A stretch of DNA of 64,000 nucleotides from the sequence record AP018932, one strand, 5' to 3'. A program made the translations under genes and the position numbers. Below are positions 4,335 to 55,194 of the stretch, piece after piece. The stretch is from Escherichia phage KIT03. Under the pieces are notes generated by a model. The model saw only the letters and a list, made by a program, of their open reading frames with translations. It was not told the DNA's origin and did no database searches. Every line of letters starts with the position of its first letter. Within the stretch, counting starts at the first letter, position 1.

Positions 4335-4603
4335 TATTTAAAACGAATAGTTGAATCCTTAAAGAACAGCCCAGAACATACTGTTCCTTCTACTTTCTGC
4401 CCGGTAGGTCCAACAGCACGAAATCCAGTATGTTGGAAATCATTTTCAGAGCAACCGAACCAGTTATATCCAGTGATTTCAATATTCGTAAAACCACTTG
4501 ATGATAAAATTTTAGTTGCATTATCAGCATCAGTACATCCTACTAAAAATACTGCTAATACTAATGCTGCGATAGAACGATTAACATATTTCATAATTTT
4601 CAC
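4334..4603 (-). CDS. predicted lipoprotein (signal peptide with LVGC lipobox), 89 aa
   Basis: N-terminal hydrophobic segment followed by Cys; RBS; position equivalent to T4 39.1/39.2. Confidence 0.55.
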   Translation of the reverse strand: MKIMKYVNRSIAALVLAVFLVGCTDADNATKILSSSGFTNIEITGYNWFGCSENDFQHTGFRAVGPTGQKVEGTVCSGLFFKDSTIRFK

Positions 4604-4974
4604 TTAAATTTAATGGCTTGAAGAAGACTAATAATTCTCAAACGGCTTCTTTCATCTTTAACTGTAAAAGAAAGAGGGTCGCCAGATTTCATAGTAATAG
4701 TGCATTCAAAATCAAAATCTTCTGTGACTTCTTCGAAGAAGTCAAATTCTTCATCATAAATTAGAACACTACTTTGCAGACTGTGAAGAGTTTTTCCAGC
4801 ATTTCTGCTAACTGCTGTACTAATCATTGTAACATTATGACCTTTCATATCTTCAACGATAAATTCACTAGTCAATATTACAGCATTAATAGAACTATTC
4901 CTATTACTAGCAGAAAGTAGAAATTTCTTTTCTTCGCCTTCGCGAATACGATACTTCTTACCAATTTTAAACAT
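4600..4974 (-). CDS. hypothetical protein, 124 aa
   Basis: ORF with ATGA stop/start overlap to downstream gene. Confidence 0.5.
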   Translation of the reverse strand: MFKIGKKYRIREGEEKKFLLSASNRNSSINAVILTSEFIVEDMKGHNVTMISTAVSRNAGKTLHSLQSSVLIYDEEFDFFEEVTEDFDFECTITMKSGDPLSFTVKDERSRLRIISLLQAIKFK

Positions 4975-5796: not shown

Positions 5797-5809
5797 TACA
5801 ATTTCCTCA

Positions 5810-6079
5810 TTAATTGAACAGTGGAGCGATGCGTTTCAGAAGAGTAGCAGCACCTTTAGCGAATTTTACATCATGAAAAACAGTTTCTTCTTCCGTTACA
5901 ACACGAGCTTTAATGTTTTCACAATCCCAATTTTTGCGAACAATCTTCAAAAGCTGCAGTAAATCTTTGCATTCAGCAATATCGATAACACATCCACGAG
6001 AATCTTCCATTATCGCACGATAACCGTAAGCCATACCATAATCGTTGAAAGATTGTTCGATGATAATTAAGTTTTCCAT
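5810..6079 (-). CDS. hypothetical protein, 89 aa
   Basis: ATG at 6077-6079 preceded by GGAGAATAAA leader shared with two other genes; ORF-track start at 6091 is a TTG extension. Confidence 0.5.
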   Translation of the reverse strand: MENLIIIEQSFNDYGMAYGYRAIMEDSRGCVIDIAECKDLLQLLKIVRKNWDCENIKARVVTEEETVFHDVKFAKGAATLLKRIAPLFN

Positions 6080-6122
6080 TTTATTCTCCAAGTTGTTTTC
6101 TGTATCAGTAGTTGATATTGAT

Positions 6123-6152
6123 ATAGTACCATAATCAACTACTGATGTATAT
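6123..6152 (-). promoter_or_regulatory. probable early promoter (TGGTACTAT extended -10; -35 poorly matched)
   Basis: -10 and leader nearly identical to promoter cassettes at 25398 and 52555. Confidence 0.35.
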
Positions 6153-6176
6153 AGTTTTATGAAAAAATTTTAAACT

Positions 6177-6674
6177 TTATGCACAGCGAGCTTTGCTATA
6201 GTGTTTAATCCAACTTTCAGGAATGACTTTGTATGTTCCTAAAAATACCGCGTTGTACAACTTAACGCCATCTTCTACCCACTGATCGGTGATGTATGCA
6301 CACATAGCGCGAGTACGGTGTTTTTGAACAACCCCTTCCTCATCTTCAGTAAATTCGAATTCATAAGGAGCAACGAACTTAATAGCTTGACCGAGTTTCC
6401 ACTTAAAGTCTACACCTACGTGCGAAGTATCAATCGTTTCAATTCCTTTAGCAGGAACAGCTTTCAAAAACGCAGACTCAAGAAATTTCGCACGAACATA
6501 GCCAAACTGAGGTTTAGATTTTCCATCTTTAGGAATGATACGCACTTTTACTTCAGAATCTTCATCTTTAACACCGTGTTTAAGCTGAATGCTTACAATT
6601 TCGACCAATTTTCCTGCTGCTTTAGAACGGGATTTATCAGATACACGAGCAATTTCACCAATATTAATAATCAT
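6177..6674 (-). CDS. hypothetical basic protein, 165 aa; possible MotB-like; paralog of next gene
   Basis: C-terminal ITDQWVEDGVKLYNAVF resembles VTDQWFEDGVELLNVVH of 6751-7287. Confidence 0.5.
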   Translation of the reverse strand: MIINIGEIARVSDKSRSKAAGKLVEIVSIQLKHGVKDEDSEVKVRIIPKDGKSKPQFGYVRAKFLESAFLKAVPAKGIETIDTSHVGVDFKWKLGQAIKFVAPYEFEFTEDEEGVVQKHRTRAMCAYITDQWVEDGVKLYNAVFLGTYKVIPESWIKHYSKARCA

Positions 6675-6750
6675 AGTTATCTCTCACTTGTTAAAAAGAT
6701 TTTATACTCCACGGGACCAGAGTATAATGGTCCCAAGAGTTTGTAAACTA

Positions 6751-7287
6751 TTAATTTAAAATAGCTACCACCGCACTACGAGGTACTACACTAAAATCAC
6801 CTGCATGAACAACGTTCAGAAGTTCAACACCATCTTCAAACCACTGGTCAGTTACCCAACCACAGACCGAAATAAATGGAGTCTTGATAGCTACCGCATG
6901 AGTTAGAAGGTCAGTAGGATCGCATTCTTGAAAGAGGATGAACTCTGCTTCATAAACCAGGATTTTCTCTATTTTGTTATTGTCTAAACGACGACCGTGG
7001 ACAATATAAGATTTAGTAAACCATTTACTTTTTTCAAAATCTTCAACAATAAATTCGCCTTCGCCAAAAACATCAGTCAGAGTTTTATGGCCGGAAATCA
7101 AGGCATTAGTTTTAATTTCAGGTTCAACCAGTTTGTAGGTTTTGCCAATTTCGATGGTCCGAGCAGTCATAAATGTTTCCTTAATTTCTAATGGTTTAAC
7201 AAGGGTGCCGTACATGCTTGCTATATCCATATCAAACGGTTTATCTACAGGATTCGGTGTGTATTTAGGATTATAATTAAATTTCAT
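6751..7287 (-). CDS. hypothetical protein, 178 aa; paralog of 6177-6674
   Basis: shared C-terminal motif with neighbour. Confidence 0.5.
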   Translation of the reverse strand: MKFNYNPKYTPNPVDKPFDMDIASMYGTLVKPLEIKETFMTARTIEIGKTYKLVEPEIKTNALISGHKTLTDVFGEGEFIVEDFEKSKWFTKSYIVHGRRLDNNKIEKILVYEAEFILFQECDPTDLLTHAVAIKTPFISVCGWVTDQWFEDGVELLNVVHAGDFSVVPRSAVVAILN

Positions 7288-7289
7288 AA

Positions 7290-7802
7290 TTATTTCATTT
7301 CAATAAAATCTATGAGTTCAGCATGCGATTTGCGGAACATTACTTGGTGCCCGCCAATGATAACTTCATCTTCAGGAACTTCATAAATCGCAATGTACAT
7401 TCCACGATCTTTTAAGTCTTCACGCTCTTCTCGGGTGAACCATCTCATCATATCATATTCACTAGCGAAAGCAAAATGATATAATGAAATAAGCCACAAT
7501 GGAATATAATTTTCAAATTGTGAATAATCTTTATTCCATTTAGTTTTAATAGCATCATTAGCATTTTCAACTAATAACTTATCATCGTGTGGAATAGGAA
7601 TACTTTCATGGCTTTCATAATTATCGCTATGATGATGAAATGACGATGAATTAATACCGCAAAATTTTAGCCAAGTTCGAGTTTTCATAGAATCAAATCC
7701 ACGATAAGGAGTTGATTGAACGCATAACTCTTGCCTAATTTTCACTATACCACTATCATCATTTAATGCGCTAAACGATGATTCAACACGATAAATTTTC
7801 AT
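7290..7802 (-). CDS. hypothetical protein, about 170 aa
   Basis: start moved to ATG at 7800-7802 (GAGGA RBS) because ORF-track start 7841 lies inside the promoter. Confidence 0.5.
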   Translation of the reverse strand: MKIYRVESSFSALNDDSGIVKIRQELCVQSTPYRGFDSMKTRTWLKFCGINSSSFHHHSDNYESHESIPIPHDDKLLVENANDAIKTKWNKDYSQFENYIPLWLISLYHFAFASEYDMMRWFTREEREDLKDRGMYIAIYEVPEDEVIIGGHQVMFRKSHAELIDFIEMK

Positions 7803-7829
7803 TTTATTATCCTCAGTAGCTATGGTGTT

Positions 7830-7859
7830 ATAGTACCACAACTAACCGAGGAAGTAAAC
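7830..7859 (-). promoter_or_regulatory. T4 early-type promoter
   Basis: GTTTAC-n18-TACTAT with TG extension. Confidence 0.55.
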
Positions 7860-7865
7860 AACTTT

Positions 7866-8549
7866 TTATCGTTTTGTTGGAAGAGATAGAGGATCGCATT
7901 CTTCCTCTGATGGAGCATCTTCAAGACCCATAGCATAACGCAAAGCATACTTCATCATCAGGATGTCTTTCGCACAGTCATGAATAGAATCATGCGCAAC
8001 GAATCCATCTAAAGTTCCTTTTGGAAGAGGACACGTGGTCATATCACGAACAAGGAGAAGTGCTTCAATTCTGGTACGAATATCACGCTGATTCCAAAAT
8101 TTACAAGGTTCTAACTTAAATGTATCAAGCTCATTCTCGGAAACGCCGTTAAGACGTTGAATATCGCGAATGAGATCGACTAAAATTGGAAAATCAAACG
8201 ACATTCCACGGCACCAGCCTTGAGATTTCCAAGGATCGATATTATGCGCATTGATGTAATCGTTGAATTTTGCAATACCATCAATGGTGCTTACATCTTC
8301 ATCGGATGGTGCAATATTTTTTCTAGCTTCAGGCGATTGATTTTTCCACCATTCAATAGTGCTTTTAGTAAAAAGACGGTGTCCTTTTTGACTTTTTAAG
8401 TCAAATTTAATTTTAATGCCACGTGAAACTAGTTCATCGAATGTTTCAACAACTTCTGGGTTAGGGTCAAAAGCAATTACAGCCAAATCAATAACAGCTG
8501 CTTTTTCACCACTTCCCATCGTTTCAAAATCTATAATAAAATCAAACAT
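7866..8549 (-). CDS. dexA: exonuclease A, DEDDh 3'-5' exonuclease
   Basis: 227 aa equals recalled T4 DexA length; N-terminal DFET exonuclease motif. Confidence 0.8.
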   Translation of the reverse strand: MFDFIIDFETMGSGEKAAVIDLAVIAFDPNPEVVETFDELVSRGIKIKFDLKSQKGHRLFTKSTIEWWKNQSPEARKNIAPSDEDVSTIDGIAKFNDYINAHNIDPWKSQGWCRGMSFDFPILVDLIRDIQRLNGVSENELDTFKLEPCKFWNQRDIRTRIEALLLVRDMTTCPLPKGTLDGFVAHDSIHDCAKDILMMKYALRYAMGLEDAPSEEECDPLSLPTKR

Positions 8550-8791
8550 TAAACTTTCCTCGCTAAATCGCGAATTTGACCTACAGTATAATCTTGGATA
8601 TAAACTTTATTAATAGGCTCATCAATAAATTTTGCCATAGATTCAATATCTTTTTGTATCTCTTCAAGACTGTATACTATCTTTAAAGCTTTTTCGCGAA
8701 TAGTAATATTTTCAGGACTAGAATTTTCCTCAATGACAGCTTTAACATTTGTCATAAGAGATTTAAACTGATACCAACTTAATTCAATCAT
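8549..8791 (-). CDS. hypothetical protein, about 80 aa
   Basis: internal Met chosen to avoid 56-nt overlap with upstream ORF. Confidence 0.4.
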   Translation of the reverse strand: MIELSWYQFKSLMTNVKAVIEENSSPENITIREKALKIVYSLEEIQKDIESMAKFIDEPINKVYIQDYTVGQIRDLARKV

Positions 8792-17702: not shown

Positions 17703-17868
17703 TTTACTCTTCTTTTTCTTTAGATTCCTCTTTTTTCTTTTTAGGAATCTGTTCAGGACCTTTATTTACTACAGCACCCGACGTTGTTCCAGTAGAGATA
17801 TTTTCAGGATTACCACCTGAATCTCCAGCTACCATATCTTCTTTGATAAATTCTTTATATGTTTTCAT
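17703..17868 (-). pseudogene. small ORF with capsid-targeting-sequence-like N-terminus (MKTYKEFIKE), interrupted by a frameshift in an A4 run
   Basis: frame from ATG 17868 stops at 17752; removing one A restores a 54-aa ORF ending next to the gene 61 start. Confidence 0.3.
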
Positions 17869-17910
17869 ATTAACCTCTATTCATAAAAGCATTAAAAATT
17901 TGGTCATCAA
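17861..17910 (-). repeat. about 45-nt direct repeat, copy 1 (3' end of gene plus junction)
   Basis: catattaacctctattcataaaagcattaaaaatttg... nearly identical to 18221-18269. Confidence 0.7.
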
Positions 17911-18226
17911 TCAATGGAATAGCAACTTTTTCTGCATCATTTAGCAAATCATTAATTTCATCAGATAGCATAACACATGTATCTTTATTTCCTGTAATTG
18001 TTACTGCGCAATTACGAACATTTTCTTTATTAAATTTTAGGTTAATATTTTCGTAATGAAAATCCTTTAATGCTGAATATATTTTTAAAATAAAATTGTC
18101 TTTTACTACAATAAACCCAACCTCACTATTAAAACGTGGCTCATGGAAACTGTAATAAACCTTTTCATCTATAAAATCGTATGAAATTTTTTCCATTTTT
18201 AAATATGAAAATTCAGAACTATACAT
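17870..18226 (-). CDS. hypothetical protein, 118 aa, C-terminus DDQIFNAFMNRG
   Basis: ORF; shares C-terminal tail with next gene. Confidence 0.5.
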   Translation of the reverse strand: MYSSEFSYLKMEKISYDFIDEKVYYSFHEPRFNSEVGFIVVKDNFILKIYSALKDFHYENINLKFNKENVRNCAVTITGNKDTCVMLSDEINDLLNDAEKVAIPLIDDQIFNAFMNRG

Positions 18227-18269
18227 ATTAACCTTTATTCATAAAAGCATTAAAAATTTGATCGTCAAT
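18221..18269 (-). repeat. about 45-nt direct repeat, copy 2
   Basis: matches 17861-17910 with 3 mismatches. Confidence 0.7.
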
Positions 18270-18854
18270 AGAAACTTTTACTTTAGGCTGTTCTTCAAAC
18301 GGTAATTCATATCCACATATTACAATTTTGTGATCGATACCAAAATGCACAGAAGCAATATGATTAATGTTATTTTCAGTAAAGTCTAAATCAACATCAA
18401 TATCTTTTTGACCACAGCCCAAAGGATAAATAATGCGAGTAATTCGATTATCTTTAACAAAGATTCCACCGACATACTCTGTGCTGAGTTTAAAGTCTAC
18501 ACGCCGACGAAATGAAAAATATTCAGGCTCTTTATGAGCTCGGCTCATAGGACACAACGAGTAACTAGAATAAGAGATGTCAAATCCTACACCTTCAATA
18601 TGAGCCAAAGTATTACGATTAAACCAATTATAATCGTACGCCAAATCCATTAGATTATAATATGTAAAAGGCACCGGATTAACATCATTAGTCACAAGCA
18701 TGTAATTAGCAACTGCTATAATTTCATTGTTTTTAACGAATACAAACCGTGATTGATGCGAATGACCTGGACCCGCGTTTTCACGATTAATGATATAACA
18801 CTGGGCACCTTTATATTTGTATGTATCTTTGCACTTGTGCATTTGATAGAGCAT
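18228..18854 (-). CDS. hypothetical protein, 208 aa, C-terminus DDQIFNAFMNKG (T4 61.2 position)
   Basis: ORF; paralogous tail. Confidence 0.55.
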   Translation of the reverse strand: MLYQMHKCKDTYKYKGAQCYIINRENAGPGHSHQSRFVFVKNNEIIAVANYMLVTNDVNPVPFTYYNLMDLAYDYNWFNRNTLAHIEGVGFDISYSSYSLCPMSRAHKEPEYFSFRRRVDFKLSTEYVGGIFVKDNRITRIIYPLGCGQKDIDVDLDFTENNINHIASVHFGIDHKIVICGYELPFEEQPKVKVSIDDQIFNAFMNKG

Positions 18855-52634: not shown

Positions 52635-53648
52635 TCATTTATAATAACTTCGATGGTTTTCAAGATAGACCTTCTCAAGGAAGTCATCCCAGAAACCCAT
52701 GTCTACTTTTTGCTGCATACCGTTCTTAGAAGCTTCAGTAGATGCTGCTTCTACTTGATCGACCACATCTTCCAAAAACTCTTGAACTGTTTTAAATGGA
52801 TGTTTACCCAACTTCACGTCGAGAATAAATGGAGCGTCTTGAAGTGGATAAACTAAGTCACCAGTTTTGTAAATTTCCAATAGTTGAAGTCCACCACGAC
52901 AGGCATGGCTCAGAGCTTTCCAGTCAATACCTTCATTGGCTTCGGCCTTACGAGCACGTTCACCATATTCAGCATCTAATTTGTTCAGTGACTGCTTAAG
53001 CTCAATAAGAGAAAGCGTTGTCTGATATTTACGACCCAACACAGTGTAGAACGTTTGTGGACCTGTTTTCTCATGATTATGGAACACCCATTCACAGAAT
53101 TCGTTTTCTGGAAGACGATGCTTAATATCTTCAATTTTAGTGCGACGTTGTCCTTGTGTTCCATCTTCTCGGTAGACATTCCGTTGATCAGGAATTTGAT
53201 TAATTACTTTCAACACATCACGTAATGCAGCTAGACGAGAACCTTTAACACCATATTTAGAAGCTTGCTTGCGAACATATCCTAAATAGGATTTCATGTT
53301 AGTCGTATAAAAACGAGAACGGTTGTCTTGAATAAACTTCCACACATCAGGCAAATCAGATTTAACTACTAGCTCAGGTGGAGTGTGAAGCATATCCAAT
53401 GCTACGGTTTCACCATCTGCTGCTAATTTAAAGAAATACTTAAGACTATACAATTCATGGTCAATATCATCTTTAGTGTTTTTAGATGATGTGTTGTTAG
53501 TGTTTTTACTCATATGCTCTTTAACATTTCCGATAAGAATATCGCGAGCAGGAGGAACAAAAATTTCTTTAAAATCTACATCAGATTCTGGGGTAGAAGT
53601 TCCATAAAGATGACTACCAAAATAGCTTTTCATTACTGTTTTCATCAT
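52635..53648 (-). CDS. predicted nucleotidyltransferase (Pol-beta-like fold), 337 aa
   Basis: N-terminal GS...SDVDF motif (YFGSHLYGTSTPESDVDF). Confidence 0.55.
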   Translation of the reverse strand: MMKTVMKSYFGSHLYGTSTPESDVDFKEIFVPPARDILIGNVKEHMSKNTNNTSSKNTKDDIDHELYSLKYFFKLAADGETVALDMLHTPPELVVKSDLPDVWKFIQDNRSRFYTTNMKSYLGYVRKQASKYGVKGSRLAALRDVLKVINQIPDQRNVYREDGTQGQRRTKIEDIKHRLPENEFCEWVFHNHEKTGPQTFYTVLGRKYQTTLSLIELKQSLNKLDAEYGERARKAEANEGIDWKALSHACRGGLQLLEIYKTGDLVYPLQDAPFILDVKLGKHPFKTVQEFLEDVVDQVEAASTEASKNGMQQKVDMGFWDDFLEKVYLENHRSYYK

Positions 53649-54106
53649 TCAGCCTTATATTCAATAACAGGACATACTTTAGCTTTACGAGCTTTTAAAA
53701 ATTCAACGATAATCGATTTCTTGGGTTGAATAGGAGGTAAACCTTTATTTTTCCTATCAATGTTTTCTACGTGTAAAGCATAATCCTTTTTCCATTTATA
53801 ATCTTTATATTTTTCACGCAAATGTACAGGAATAACAAATGAACTGATAATAAGTAAAACAACCAAAAGCGCAAGTATAAATGCTGATGGAAGCAAAGTC
53901 CATAAACTACCGAAAATAAGCCAACGCTGTAGGCTTTCTGCACAAATAATTGTTAGCCCTACGAGTATAGCACACCCGAAAATAGAAACGAAAAATGTAG
54001 GAATGGCAATAGACCAAAAATATGCGCATAGTGTCTTAGGTCGTTGCCATTCATCGTTAAACAATTTGAATAATTTATAGTGCCAAGAGTTTTCATTAAT
54101 AATCAT
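53645..54106 (-). CDS. membrane protein, 153 aa
   Basis: two long hydrophobic segments. Confidence 0.5.
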   Translation of the reverse strand: MIINENSWHYKLFKLFNDEWQRPKTLCAYFWSIAIPTFFVSIFGCAILVGLTIICAESLQRWLIFGSLWTLLPSAFILALLVVLLIISSFVIPVHLREKYKDYKWKKDYALHVENIDRKNKGLPPIQPKKSIIVEFLKARKAKVCPVIEYKAE

Positions 54107-54108
54107 AA

Positions 54109-54630
54109 TTATCCTTTCATTGAAGGCGTAACGGTTGTTAAATACTTAATCATAGCTTCAGCTTCTGATTTTGATAATGAAATTTCTCCATTGTTTTGAC
54201 GAATAGAAATAAAATCCGGATGACGGTCACCACCAGCTTTTAAAACACACATATAAGTATCAACTTCGCCTTCAATATTTGAAATGATTGAAGCAGTTCC
54301 ACATGAATGTGGTTTTTGATAAATCAATGCAGCTTTTCTTCCACCGTTTGACTGTTCATAAACTTTTAACACATCAAACAAATCGCTTCTTTTATCAATA
54401 GCTAAGATGTTGTTTTCATCTTCAATGTTAAATCCTTCGGATACTTCATAAAGTGTCACCCATAAATCACCTATATCGATAGTAGCATTTCCTTTTCCAC
54501 GACTTTCAAGAATATGACAAATTTTCTTGATTTCGTCATAACTCATTTTAATAATATCATCTCCTTGAATAAGGAAGATGTCATTTTTAAATTCAACACG
54601 AATTAAACCACTTCCACTTGAAATAAACAT
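54109..54630 (-). CDS. hypothetical protein, 173 aa, paralog of next gene
   Basis: C-terminal SEAEAMIKYLTTVTPSMKG resembles DEAIALKTYLDSVIPTMISK. Confidence 0.5.
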   Translation of the reverse strand: MFISSGSGLIRVEFKNDIFLIQGDDIIKMSYDEIKKICHILESRGKGNATIDIGDLWVTLYEVSEGFNIEDENNILAIDKRSDLFDVLKVYEQSNGGRKAALIYQKPHSCGTASIISNIEGEVDTYMCVLKAGGDRHPDFISIRQNNGEISLSKSEAEAMIKYLTTVTPSMKG

Positions 54631-54636
54631 ATTTCC

Positions 54637-55194
54637 TCACTTTGAAATCATAGTTGGAATGACAGAATCAAGATAAGTCTTTAGCGCAATAGCTTCGTCT
54701 TTGGTAAATGTGACAATATGCGATCGAAAATCATCAATTTGACGAATAGTTAAGACATCTCCATCTTCATAACATTTTGATACGTTTAAAACAGTTTCAT
54801 CATTCTGATTGCAAGCGTTAGTAATAATAGCATTGCAATTTTTAAACCATTTTAAACTATGTTTTCTTTCATTAGAATAATAAAAATATTTAATCTTATC
54901 TATAAAACTGTCCCAATGAATAACTGATAGGCATATTGACTCGCTTTCAATATTAAATCCTGGGCATGAAGAATAAAAATGAATTTTATGCTCATCATTA
55001 ATGCTTACAATTTTATCAGTATAAGGATTTTCAATTTGGGTTAAATGAATGATTTCACTAGGCGTAAAATACATCATATCATCTTCTTGCGTCAAACGAT
55101 ACATATTATTTACTTTTTCTATAGCTAATTCACCAAAAAGTGAACTAACTTCTAATACTAATCGTTTCATATTGATTCTCTTCGACTCACTCAC
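54637..55194 (-). CDS. hypothetical protein, 185 aa, paralog of previous gene
   Basis: shared C-terminal motif; probable GTG start with AGGAG RBS. Confidence 0.5.
   Translation of the reverse strand: MSESKRINMKRLVLEVSSLFGELAIEKVNNMYRLTQEDDMMYFTPSEIIHLTQIENPYTDKIVSINDEHKIHFYSSCPGFNIESESICLSVIHWDSFIDKIKYFYYSNERKHSLKWFKNCNAIITNACNQNDETVLNVSKCYEDGDVLTIRQIDDFRSHIVTFTKDEAIALKTYLDSVIPTMISK

Follow-up and report, generated by a model that had tools for sequence, protein, structure and literature searches.

Genes and features of the locus

The window, a stretch of 64,000 nucleotides from Escherichia phage KIT03 (AP018932), is a segment of a T4-like phage (Tequatrovirus) genome, and all genes considered here lie on the minus strand. 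Here we examined three gene pairs in it. An initial annotation had described two of these, 6177-6674 with 6751-7287 and 54109-54630 with 54637-55194, as adjacent pairs which share C-terminal motifs behind divergent N-termini, and had seen the same architecture in the pair at 17870 and 18228. All six open reading frames were present at these positions. They are numbered below as pairs 1 (6177-7287), 2 (54109-55194) and 3 (17870-18854), and their features are collected in Table 1.

Around pair 1 the region 5800-8600 was 96% identical to phages NiC89 and G4507, and the gene order dexA, motB.2, motB.1, motB, cef, goF matched that of T4. Pfam and PHROG matches, synteny with T4 and BLASTP orthology identify 6177-6674 as motB and 6751-7287 as a motB.1-type gene.

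Table 1. Features of the three gene pairs and of the neighbourhood of pair 1. Structural entries with pLDDT values refer to predicted models.
Feature	Position	Strand	Evidence and remarks
124-aa gene, LSm-like N-terminal domain as in the MotB.1-type head	about 4600..4974	-	phrog_622 E 6e-30, phrog_2333 E 1.3e-4; absent from T4
goF, 141 aa	5156..5581	-	86% identical to T4 GoF; phrog_622 E 7e-41; founding member of the LSm-like family
motB, 165 aa	6177..6674	-	PF17613 E 6.5e-99; 88% identical to T4 MotB, BLASTP E 8e-107
MotB C-terminal domain, residues 90-165; shared tail, long form with β-hairpin insert	6180..6407	-	pLDDT 83-92; tail alignment
MotB linker, residues 69-89, predicted disordered	6408..6470	-	pLDDT <50 for residues 69-86; relatives carry large insertions here
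MotB N-terminal KOW-like barrel, residues 1-68	6471..6674	-	AF2 β-barrel, pLDDT 72-86; basic, pI 9.75
Intergenic T4-type early promoter and stem-loop (PeSL-like), upstream of motB	6675..6750	-	stem 6713-6719 / 6728-6734; sequence
motB.1-type gene, 178 aa	6751..7287	-	phrog_2333 E 4.7e-77; position equivalent to T4 motB.1; KIT03 gp011 (100% identical)
MotB.1-type tail, residues 123-178; shared module, short form	6754..6921	-	five-strand barrel, pLDDT 83-90; acidic, pI 4.3; phrog_1671 E 4e-16
MotB.1-type head, residues 44-122; GoF/Frd.2-type 'LSm-like' small barrel	6922..7158	-	hhalign; head HMM; pLDDT 84-90
Disordered N-terminal extension, residues 1-43 (about)	7159..7287	-	pLDDT <50; contains the conserved D.D.ASMY motif
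D.D.ASMY motif, residues 15-34	7186-7245	-	motif instances and HMM scan
Tract of about 45 nt, near-identical in DNA to 18224-18269; recombination junction	17866..17911	-	43/46 identical; upstream diverged
118-aa partial paralog of the AdfA C-terminal half	17870..18226	-	PF23813 positions 113-211, 32.8 bits (cut-off 27); absent from T4
adfA (T4 gene 61.2), anti-DarT factor A, 208 aa	18228..18854	-	93% identical to T4; PF23813 E 9e-134
Second, diverged full-length y05I paralog	54109..54630	-	26% identical to T4 MobD.1; PF24449 E 1e-32, PF24448 E 5e-23; no T4 counterpart
MobD.1 ortholog, y05I family, two domains	54637..55194	-	84% identical to T4 MobD.1; PF24449 E 7e-38, PF24448 E 1e-20

The gap between the two genes of pair 1 resembles a PeSL element, i.e. 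a T4-group early promoter (TTTACW..N17..TAYWAT) with a stem-loop, intergenic and in a hyperplastic zone (PMC4122927). The window has TTTACA, read by eye as a promoter, and an inverted repeat with a 7-bp stem and an 8-nt loop; the loop with the -10 hexamer is inverted, whereas T4 itself fits N17-TATAAT. A generic sigma-70 scan did not detect the T4-type early promoter upstream of motB.

MotB and the MotB.1-type protein share a tail behind unrelated heads

Pairwise alignment, which had been proposed as a check of the shared C-termini, gave significant similarity within pairs 1, 2 and 3 (BLASTP E 1e-10, 6e-11 and 1e-9, respectively). A BLASTP comparison of the six proteins and their neighbours uncovered no significant similarity across pairs. 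Thus, the three pairs are three unrelated families and not one recurring architecture, and the proposed likeness of pair 1 to the 17870/18228 pair is lost.

Within pair 1 the description was correct. The tails had 16/32 residues identical, and a search of 1,176 six-frame open reading frames of the window with either tail returned only the other tail (E 7e-9 and 3e-9). In Smith-Waterman shuffle tests the tails scored z = 21.4 and none of 500 shuffles reached the score; for the heads z was 0.1 and 215/500 shuffles reached it. The DNA of the two tails was about 70% identical with synonymous differences scattered throughout, which argues for selection at the protein level and against recent gene conversion. 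The observation is real, yet already known: according to Patterson-West et al. (2021; PMC7827196), who distinguished four categories among 102 homologs, the C-terminal domain is conserved between MotB and MotB.1 and the N-terminal domains differ. They predicted a KOW domain for the MotB head by HHpred and an OB fold for the tail.

MotB matched PF17613 with 328.9 bits over profile positions 1-160. Its KOW-like N-terminal domain was conserved in the alignment with its relatives, and the AF2 barrel concurs. The 178-aa protein reached 32.6 bits (cut-off 25), and only residues 140-173 matched, on profile positions 120-153. It lacks a KOW head: beside the shuffle result, hhalign of KOW against the MotB.1-type heads gave a probability of 0.4%. 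By sequence it is a MotB.1-type protein and not MotB proper (category 1 of PMC7827196). Like T4 MotB.1, it is encoded next to motB at the same genomic position and carries the C-terminal domain of PF17613 (PMC6070864; PMC7827196). It differs in its length (the T4 protein is annotated with 119 aa and really has 143 aa, see below) and in the predicted disordered extension with the D.D.ASMY motif. This motif was found neither in the remaining open reading frames of the window nor in T4-type MotB proteins.

The head of the MotB.1-type protein belongs to the GoF family

A profile of MotB.1 heads from which the tails had been removed matched the 124-aa open reading frame at about 4600-4974 with E 1e-6; the next-best open reading frame of the window had E >1. 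With hhalign the MotB.1 head was linked to the family of the 124-aa protein and GoF with 93% probability, and with 96% once GoF joined the template (E 2.5e-7 to 1e-8; the alignment spans 79/83 columns). PHROG matches between the MotB.1-type protein and this family were reciprocal. AF2 predicted β1-α-β2-β3-β4-α-β5 for the head; a bent β-sheet of five strands in the N-terminal domain is the mark of the GoF/MotB.1/Frd.2 family. Direct comparisons were negative: GoF itself against the MotB.1 head HMM was not significant (E 1.4), and the 124-aa protein had no BLASTP match to GoF. The link between head and GoF comes from the profile-profile alignments and from common PHROG membership. When the heads, the 124-aa protein and goF were scanned against Pfam, all matches were sub-threshold (DUF7632 0.015-0.033; FRD2 0.061). 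A homologue search with the 124-aa protein returned, among the matches listed, only close relatives of at least 82% identity. A search of a viral fold library retrieved relatives of MotB and MotB.1, none of the entries bearing the name GoF.

Kim et al. (2025; PMC12152347) had joined the MotB.1 head, GoF and Frd.2 in a family with an "LSm-like fold" of SH3-like topology. Our profile comparisons point to the same family and were reached independently of that study. Residues 44-122 of the 178-aa protein form a member, and the window holds goF and the 124-aa protein as further ones. The C-terminal domains were described there as 'various structures', and the T4 MotB.1 used had 13.8 kDa, i.e. most of the tail was missing. 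T4 deleted for motB.1 had no phenotype under laboratory conditions (PMC12152347).

The tail is confined to small T4-like phage proteins and is their most conserved part

The homologue searches covered the first 120 matches listed for each query. When 1.84 billion representative proteins were searched exhaustively with the tail profile, 32 matches were obtained. Six of these (567-2,607 aa) were rejected as spurious, since weak matches had added up along repetitive proteins of the Ig-like, CarboxypepD_reg or tail-fibre kind. The remaining 26 were phage proteins of 43-251 aa, and the tail was always C-terminal. Thus, the tail is confined to small proteins of T4-like phages. At least five head architectures precede it, so that a shared tail with variable heads, as claimed for pair 1, holds across the family. 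KOW with a long tail is found in MotB, and KOW may also be combined with the D.D.ASMY motif and a short tail. A single LSm-like domain precedes the tail in T4-type MotB.1, and the D.D.ASMY motif is added in front of it in the 178-aa protein of the window; other proteins carry two LSm-like domains or an additional N-terminal domain. In three bridging forms (P0250, P0251 and P0253) the "DPTDLL" prefix of the MotB.1 tails was combined with the hairpin insert of the MotB tails. This indicated that the homology extends beyond the 32 residues aligned by BLAST to the entire C-terminal domain, in which the β1-β2 hairpin is variable. KOW, LSm-like head and tail gave no signal of a common origin among themselves (hhalign probability at most 1.2%).

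The tail core was the most conserved segment of the tail-bearing proteins. In MotB.1 proteins its mean identity was 95% (minimum 83%) versus 57% (minimum 12%) for the heads; in MotB proteins it was 75% versus 55% for the KOW domain. In the tail alignment D, W, G, N and V of [ST]D.W.E.G..L.N.V were invariant. Nearly all members had an acidic tail (pI 4-5.5, net charge -3 to -12); the T4-type MotB tail, with a pI of 8.0, was near neutral.

Of 50,697 phage records 922 contained the tail, with 1,827 occurrences in total. Two copies per genome are typical of Tequatroviruses; RB69-like phages have three, and T2 and the Klebsiella T4-like phages one. All 24 tails of the alignment matched PF17613. Beyond this family no relative of the tail was detected at the sequence level in Pfam, nor was any in PDB, which was queried with MotB, with the 178-aa protein and with the profile of 24 tails and gave nothing at E up to 10.

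Predicted models suggest an SH3/Tudor-like barrel

The proposal to predict the structure of the shared tails was followed for pair 1, and both tails were modelled by AF2 as five-strand barrels. DSSP assigned the order β1-β2-β3-β4-3_10-β5, in which β4 follows β3 without an intervening helix (pLDDT 83-92). Among small β-barrels this is the SH3/Sm/Tudor-like topology and not that of an OB fold, which is marked by a helix between β3 and β4 and by OB structural neighbours; the predicted models of both tails lack these. Foldseek searches of PDB with both models had as best matches tandem Tudor domains (53BP1, UHRF1), Agenet, SAWADEE and the KOW repeats of Spt5. The matches were weak: the probability was 0.99-1.0, yet the best E-value was 3e-3, none was at or below 1e-3 and TM was 0.25-0.4, with two-domain models as queries. 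OB-fold structures were absent from the top 50 PDB matches of either two-domain model. From these models the tail is likely an SH3/Tudor-like barrel of five strands and 55-75 residues, and the published OB assignment (PMC7827196) appears doubtful.

The tandem small-barrel readers, such as the tandem Tudor domains of 53BP1 and UHRF1 and the KOW domains of Spt5/DSIF, follow the same plan, with a linker between two SH3-like barrels. They are eukaryotic chromatin and transcription proteins without sequence similarity to the phage proteins, and with these E-values the resemblance is one of fold only.

The T4 reference sequence of motB.1 carries an additional base

MotB.1 of the T4 reference genome (NC_000866.4 / AF158101.6; UniProt P39415) has 119 aa and 13.8 kDa and ends within the tail core with ...WVTDQWIGRWR. 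The reference DNA contains one additional G, CAATGGATTGGAAGATGG versus CAATGGATT-GAAGATGG. If the frame is shifted by +1, the remaining tail can be read without interruption to the usual stop. Among 16 records with at least 99% identity the additional G was present only in the two reference entries, and 13 other T4-type genomes are without it. In MT984581 MotB.1 has 143 aa and a full tail. Judged by these records, a single inserted base very probably created the artefactual 119-aa protein of the reference genome and of UniProt, and the real protein has 143 aa.

Kim et al. (2025) obtained motB.1 plasmids by gene synthesis, cited NC_000866.4, reported a monomer of 13.8 kDa and found the protein almost entirely insoluble (PMC12152347). 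The word "frameshift" is absent from that paper. Probably, its heterologous MotB.1 results concern a tail-truncated protein. Constructs made from the 119-aa sequence would be without most of the tail, which may be why the protein was insoluble and showed no activity.

Pairs 2 and 3 are a full-length and a partial duplication

For pair 2 the claim of shared C-termini behind divergent N-termini did not survive. The proteins were 30% identical over 176 aa, covering the whole length. In shuffle tests the N-terminal domains scored z = 8.4 (27% identity) and the C-terminal domains z = 7.7 (32% identity). As both domains are homologous and PF24449 as well as PF24448 are matched by both proteins, the N-termini are not divergent in the sense intended. 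By these comparisons pair 2 is an ordinary tandem full-length duplication in a hyperplastic early region. The y05I/MobD.1 family with its two domains is already in Pfam. T4 has one y05I copy adjoining the mobD homing endonuclease, whereas the window has two copies and a 153-aa membrane protein at the mobD site. Of the two copies the upstream one is the MobD.1 ortholog, and the additional, diverged one lies where mobD is found in T4.

In pair 3 the 208-aa protein is a full-length ortholog of AdfA, matching positions 1-211 of the 211-position profile PF23813, a family already defined in Pfam. AdfA neutralises DarT1 by binding, and its specificity is set at residue 164 (PMC11257639). The 118-aa neighbour was 36% identical to AdfA over 106 aa and aligned with AdfA residues 109-208 only; shuffle tests gave z = 15 against the C-terminal and z = 0.6 against the N-terminal half. 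The final 13 residues, IDDQIFNAFMN[RK]G, are near-identical in the two proteins. The corresponding DNA tract runs through the stop codon into the start of the next gene (GGTTAATATG). A near-identical tract that extends past a stop codon, with diverged DNA upstream, indicates a recombination junction. The older homology was still significant without the tract (z = 5.8). The comparisons identify the 118-aa gene as a partial duplicate of AdfA: the N-terminal half is missing and there is no alternative head, thus no head swap. The C-terminal duplicate would have been inserted in a hyperplastic early region through the short homologous tract. Residue 164 lies within the half matched by the 118-aa protein and, as a speculation, the copy might be a variant DarT binder.

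Discussion

The best explanation of the data as a whole combines the identity of the genes, the evolution of pair 1, docking by its tail, and ordinary duplications in pairs 2 and 3; we give it a probability of about 0.6. Its parts differ in strength. That pair 1 consists of motB and a motB.1-type gene with a history of duplication and head replacement is close to certain. An ancestral small early protein consisting of an N-terminal barrel, a linker and a C-terminal barrel would have been duplicated, and in one copy the basic KOW-like head would have been swapped for a GoF-type LSm-like barrel. The C-terminal domain would have been kept in both copies under strong purifying selection.

What the tail does is a more tentative matter, and docking or self-association as its mechanism is put at somewhat less than even odds. 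The initial annotation had suggested a common docking module. For the tail of pair 1 this is a reasonable reading, with which the acidic charge is consistent. The tail is phage-restricted, acidic and the most conserved segment, which favours docking or self-association over a DNA-binding surface. Its surface would present an invariant, exposed acidic-aromatic stripe, with [ST]D.W.E.G on β2 and N.V on β3. As a common address module it would dock on one shared partner. This may be a second tail, in which case the contact would account for the reported cooperative spreading of MotB, or a basic nucleoid-associated protein, e.g. H-NS/StpA. Contact with nucleic acid would be left to the heads: DNA would be bound by the basic KOW domain of MotB and, perhaps, RNA by the LSm-like head of MotB.1. 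The acidic pI of the tail compared to the pI of 9.75 of the MotB KOW head, and the acidic or aromatic nature of the invariant residues, speak for docking rather than DNA binding. So do two observations on T4 MotB: H-NS/StpA were copurified with it, and it appears to spread along DNA (PMC6070864). A bulky C-terminal fusion lowered MotB toxicity, a comparison that is confounded by temperature (PMC6070864), and this also points to docking. On the other side, the T4-type MotB tail is compatible with DNA contact by its pI, the published HHpred assignment points to an OB fold of cold-shock-like type, potentially DNA-binding (PMC7827196), AlphaFold3 gave no confident MotB.1 homodimer (with the truncated sequence; PMC12152347), and the motB.1 deletion has no laboratory phenotype. 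The low significance of the Foldseek matches, which came from two-domain models, also counts against this reading. Spelled out in full, the proposal is that the acidic SH3/Tudor-like tail binds to a basic stretch on a nucleoid or transcription protein of the host, e.g. H-NS/StpA, or self-polymerises, and as an address tag delivers KOW (DNA) and LSm-like (RNA) barrels to the same site. In this specific form we consider it rather improbable.

Other explanations have to be weighed against docking. The tail itself may be a nucleic-acid-binding cold-shock-type OB fold, as proposed in 2021, and MotB and MotB.1 would then bind DNA or RNA through it while the heads modulate. An IF5A model did appear in the viral fold search, at rank 50 with E 3e-2. 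SH3-like DNA binders exist as well, and this was counted in favour of a nucleic-acid-binding tail. HHpred matched the tail to the C-terminal OB domain of eIF5A (PMC7827196), and the tight, non-specific DNA binding of T4 MotB (PMC6070864) would also fit. However, an acidic tail is the rule in the family, with few exceptions, and the pI of the complete 178-aa protein is 5.1. Among the invariant residues D, W, E, G and N none is basic; the models, without a β3-β4 helix and with a 3_10 turn before β5, are SH3-like, and no OB fold was among the top 50 PDB matches of either model. We therefore regard this explanation as unlikely. The same low likelihood is given to the tail as a purely homo- or hetero-oligomerising module, with MotB polymerising along DNA, MotB.1 joining or capping the polymer and no host partner. 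The spreading of MotB on DNA, 'perhaps through protein-protein cooperativity' (PMC6070864), and the extreme conservation of the tail would agree with this, as would the fact that two tail-bearing genes, in some cases three, are kept together in most Tequatrovirus genomes. Yet T2 and the Klebsiella T4-like phages have a single tail-bearing gene, so that hetero-pairing is not obligatory, and no confident MotB.1 homomultimer was obtained by AlphaFold3 with the truncated sequence (PMC12152347).

Finally, the similarities might be by-products of recent DNA-level recombination or gene conversion and not conserved protein modules. This would suit pair 3, in which a terminal tract with 43/46 identical nucleotides adjoins diverged upstream DNA. 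It would also suit the PeSL-like promoter/stem-loop cassette between motB.1 and motB, which is of a type implicated in shuffling. But the tails of pair 1 are too dissimilar in DNA, with their synonymous differences throughout, pair 3 is significant without the identical tract, and pair 2 is 30% identical over its whole length. Recombination is very improbable and refuted as a general explanation; it is valid for the extreme 3' end of pair 3 only.

Compared to the published observation on pair 1 the added value is modest and consists of the fold re-assessment, the charge argument and the error in the reference sequence. An SH3/Tudor-like instead of an OB topology is a re-assessment of use for work on T4 early proteins, as is the docking or self-association role suggested by the phage restriction, conservation and acidity of the tail. 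If the tail is an address tag, the heterologous MotB.1 experiments were probably carried out with a tagless protein and a function may have been missed. T4-like phages would then bring different nucleic-acid-binding barrels to one site by means of a common tag.

The N-terminal extension and the mosaic heads of the 178-aa family

The protein encoded by the motB.1-type gene (6751-7287) carries a conserved D.D.ASMY...P motif ahead of its LSm-like head. Among relatives the position of this motif varies: it is located before the LSm-like head, at the head-tail junction or at the KOW-tail junction. It was absent from the other ORFs of the window and from T4-type MotB. A possible role for it is that of a short linear motif used in docking. 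In some records homologs (P0089, P0106, P0113) are annotated from an internal Met; these, the 'MotB.1' of PP01 included, are 138-141 aa long and lack the N-terminal extension. Because the extension and its motif are conserved, sequence comparison supports the long form of the gene, as used here, over the internal start.

In an alignment of the homologs the heads fell into two alleles, e.g. NALISGHKTLTDV...FEKSKWF vs TELNLGYKALTSV...FSKSNWYDKN. The two alleles were combined with two N-terminal variants, i.e. the family displays mosaic recombination, and the tail was invariant across these mosaics.

Truncated and fused forms of MotB.1

We compared motB.1 of the T4 reference (L002 3215-3345, i.e. 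NC_000866.4 7214-7344) with window 6751-6880 and a further sequence, L006. The tail core of the 119-aa reference version contains one additional G which is missing in 13 other T4-type genomes. Without this base T4 motB.1 encodes 143 aa with a complete tail. The truncated MotB.1 is probably the form behind published plasmid work on a 13.8-kDa protein.

A search of representative proteins with the tail profile recovered a natural protein of 43 aa, P0260, in which the start of MotB.2 (MKIYRVESSFS) is fused to the final 29 residues of the MotB.1 tail. Apparently, it is the product of a deletion which joined the MotB.2 and MotB.1 genes. The '29-aa RB69 peptide' (PMC7827196) may be a similar case.

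Features at neighboring and other loci

Coordinates of the features
Feature	Position	Location or remark
124-aa gene	4600-4974	absent from T4; N-terminal domain of the GoF/MotB.1/Frd.2 LSm-like family
PeSL-like early promoter/stem-loop	6702-6734	intergenic, upstream of motB
D.D.ASMY...P motif, conserved, about 20 aa	7186-7245	predicted disordered region of the 178-aa protein (residues 15-34)
45-nt tract, DNA nearly identical	17866-17911 and 18224-18269	3' ends of the 118-aa partial copy and the AdfA gene
Predicted 153-aa membrane protein	53645-54106	between nrdC.11 and the y05I pair

The stem of the PeSL-like element (GGGACCA/TGGTCCC) is the same in the window and in T4. The 8-nt loops, TTATACTC in the window and GAGTATAA in T4, are exact reverse complements; thus, the loop with the -10 hexamer is flipped. 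A further copy of GAGTATAA directly follows the element in both phages.

The tract shared by the AdfA gene and its partial copy takes in the stop codon and the next ATG and is likely a homology-mediated insertion junction. At the site of the predicted membrane protein T4 has the homing endonuclease mobD, i.e. a gene was replaced at a known mobile-element site. Three genes with the LSm-like domain, the 124-aa gene, goF and the motB.1-type gene, are thus present within 2.7 kb.
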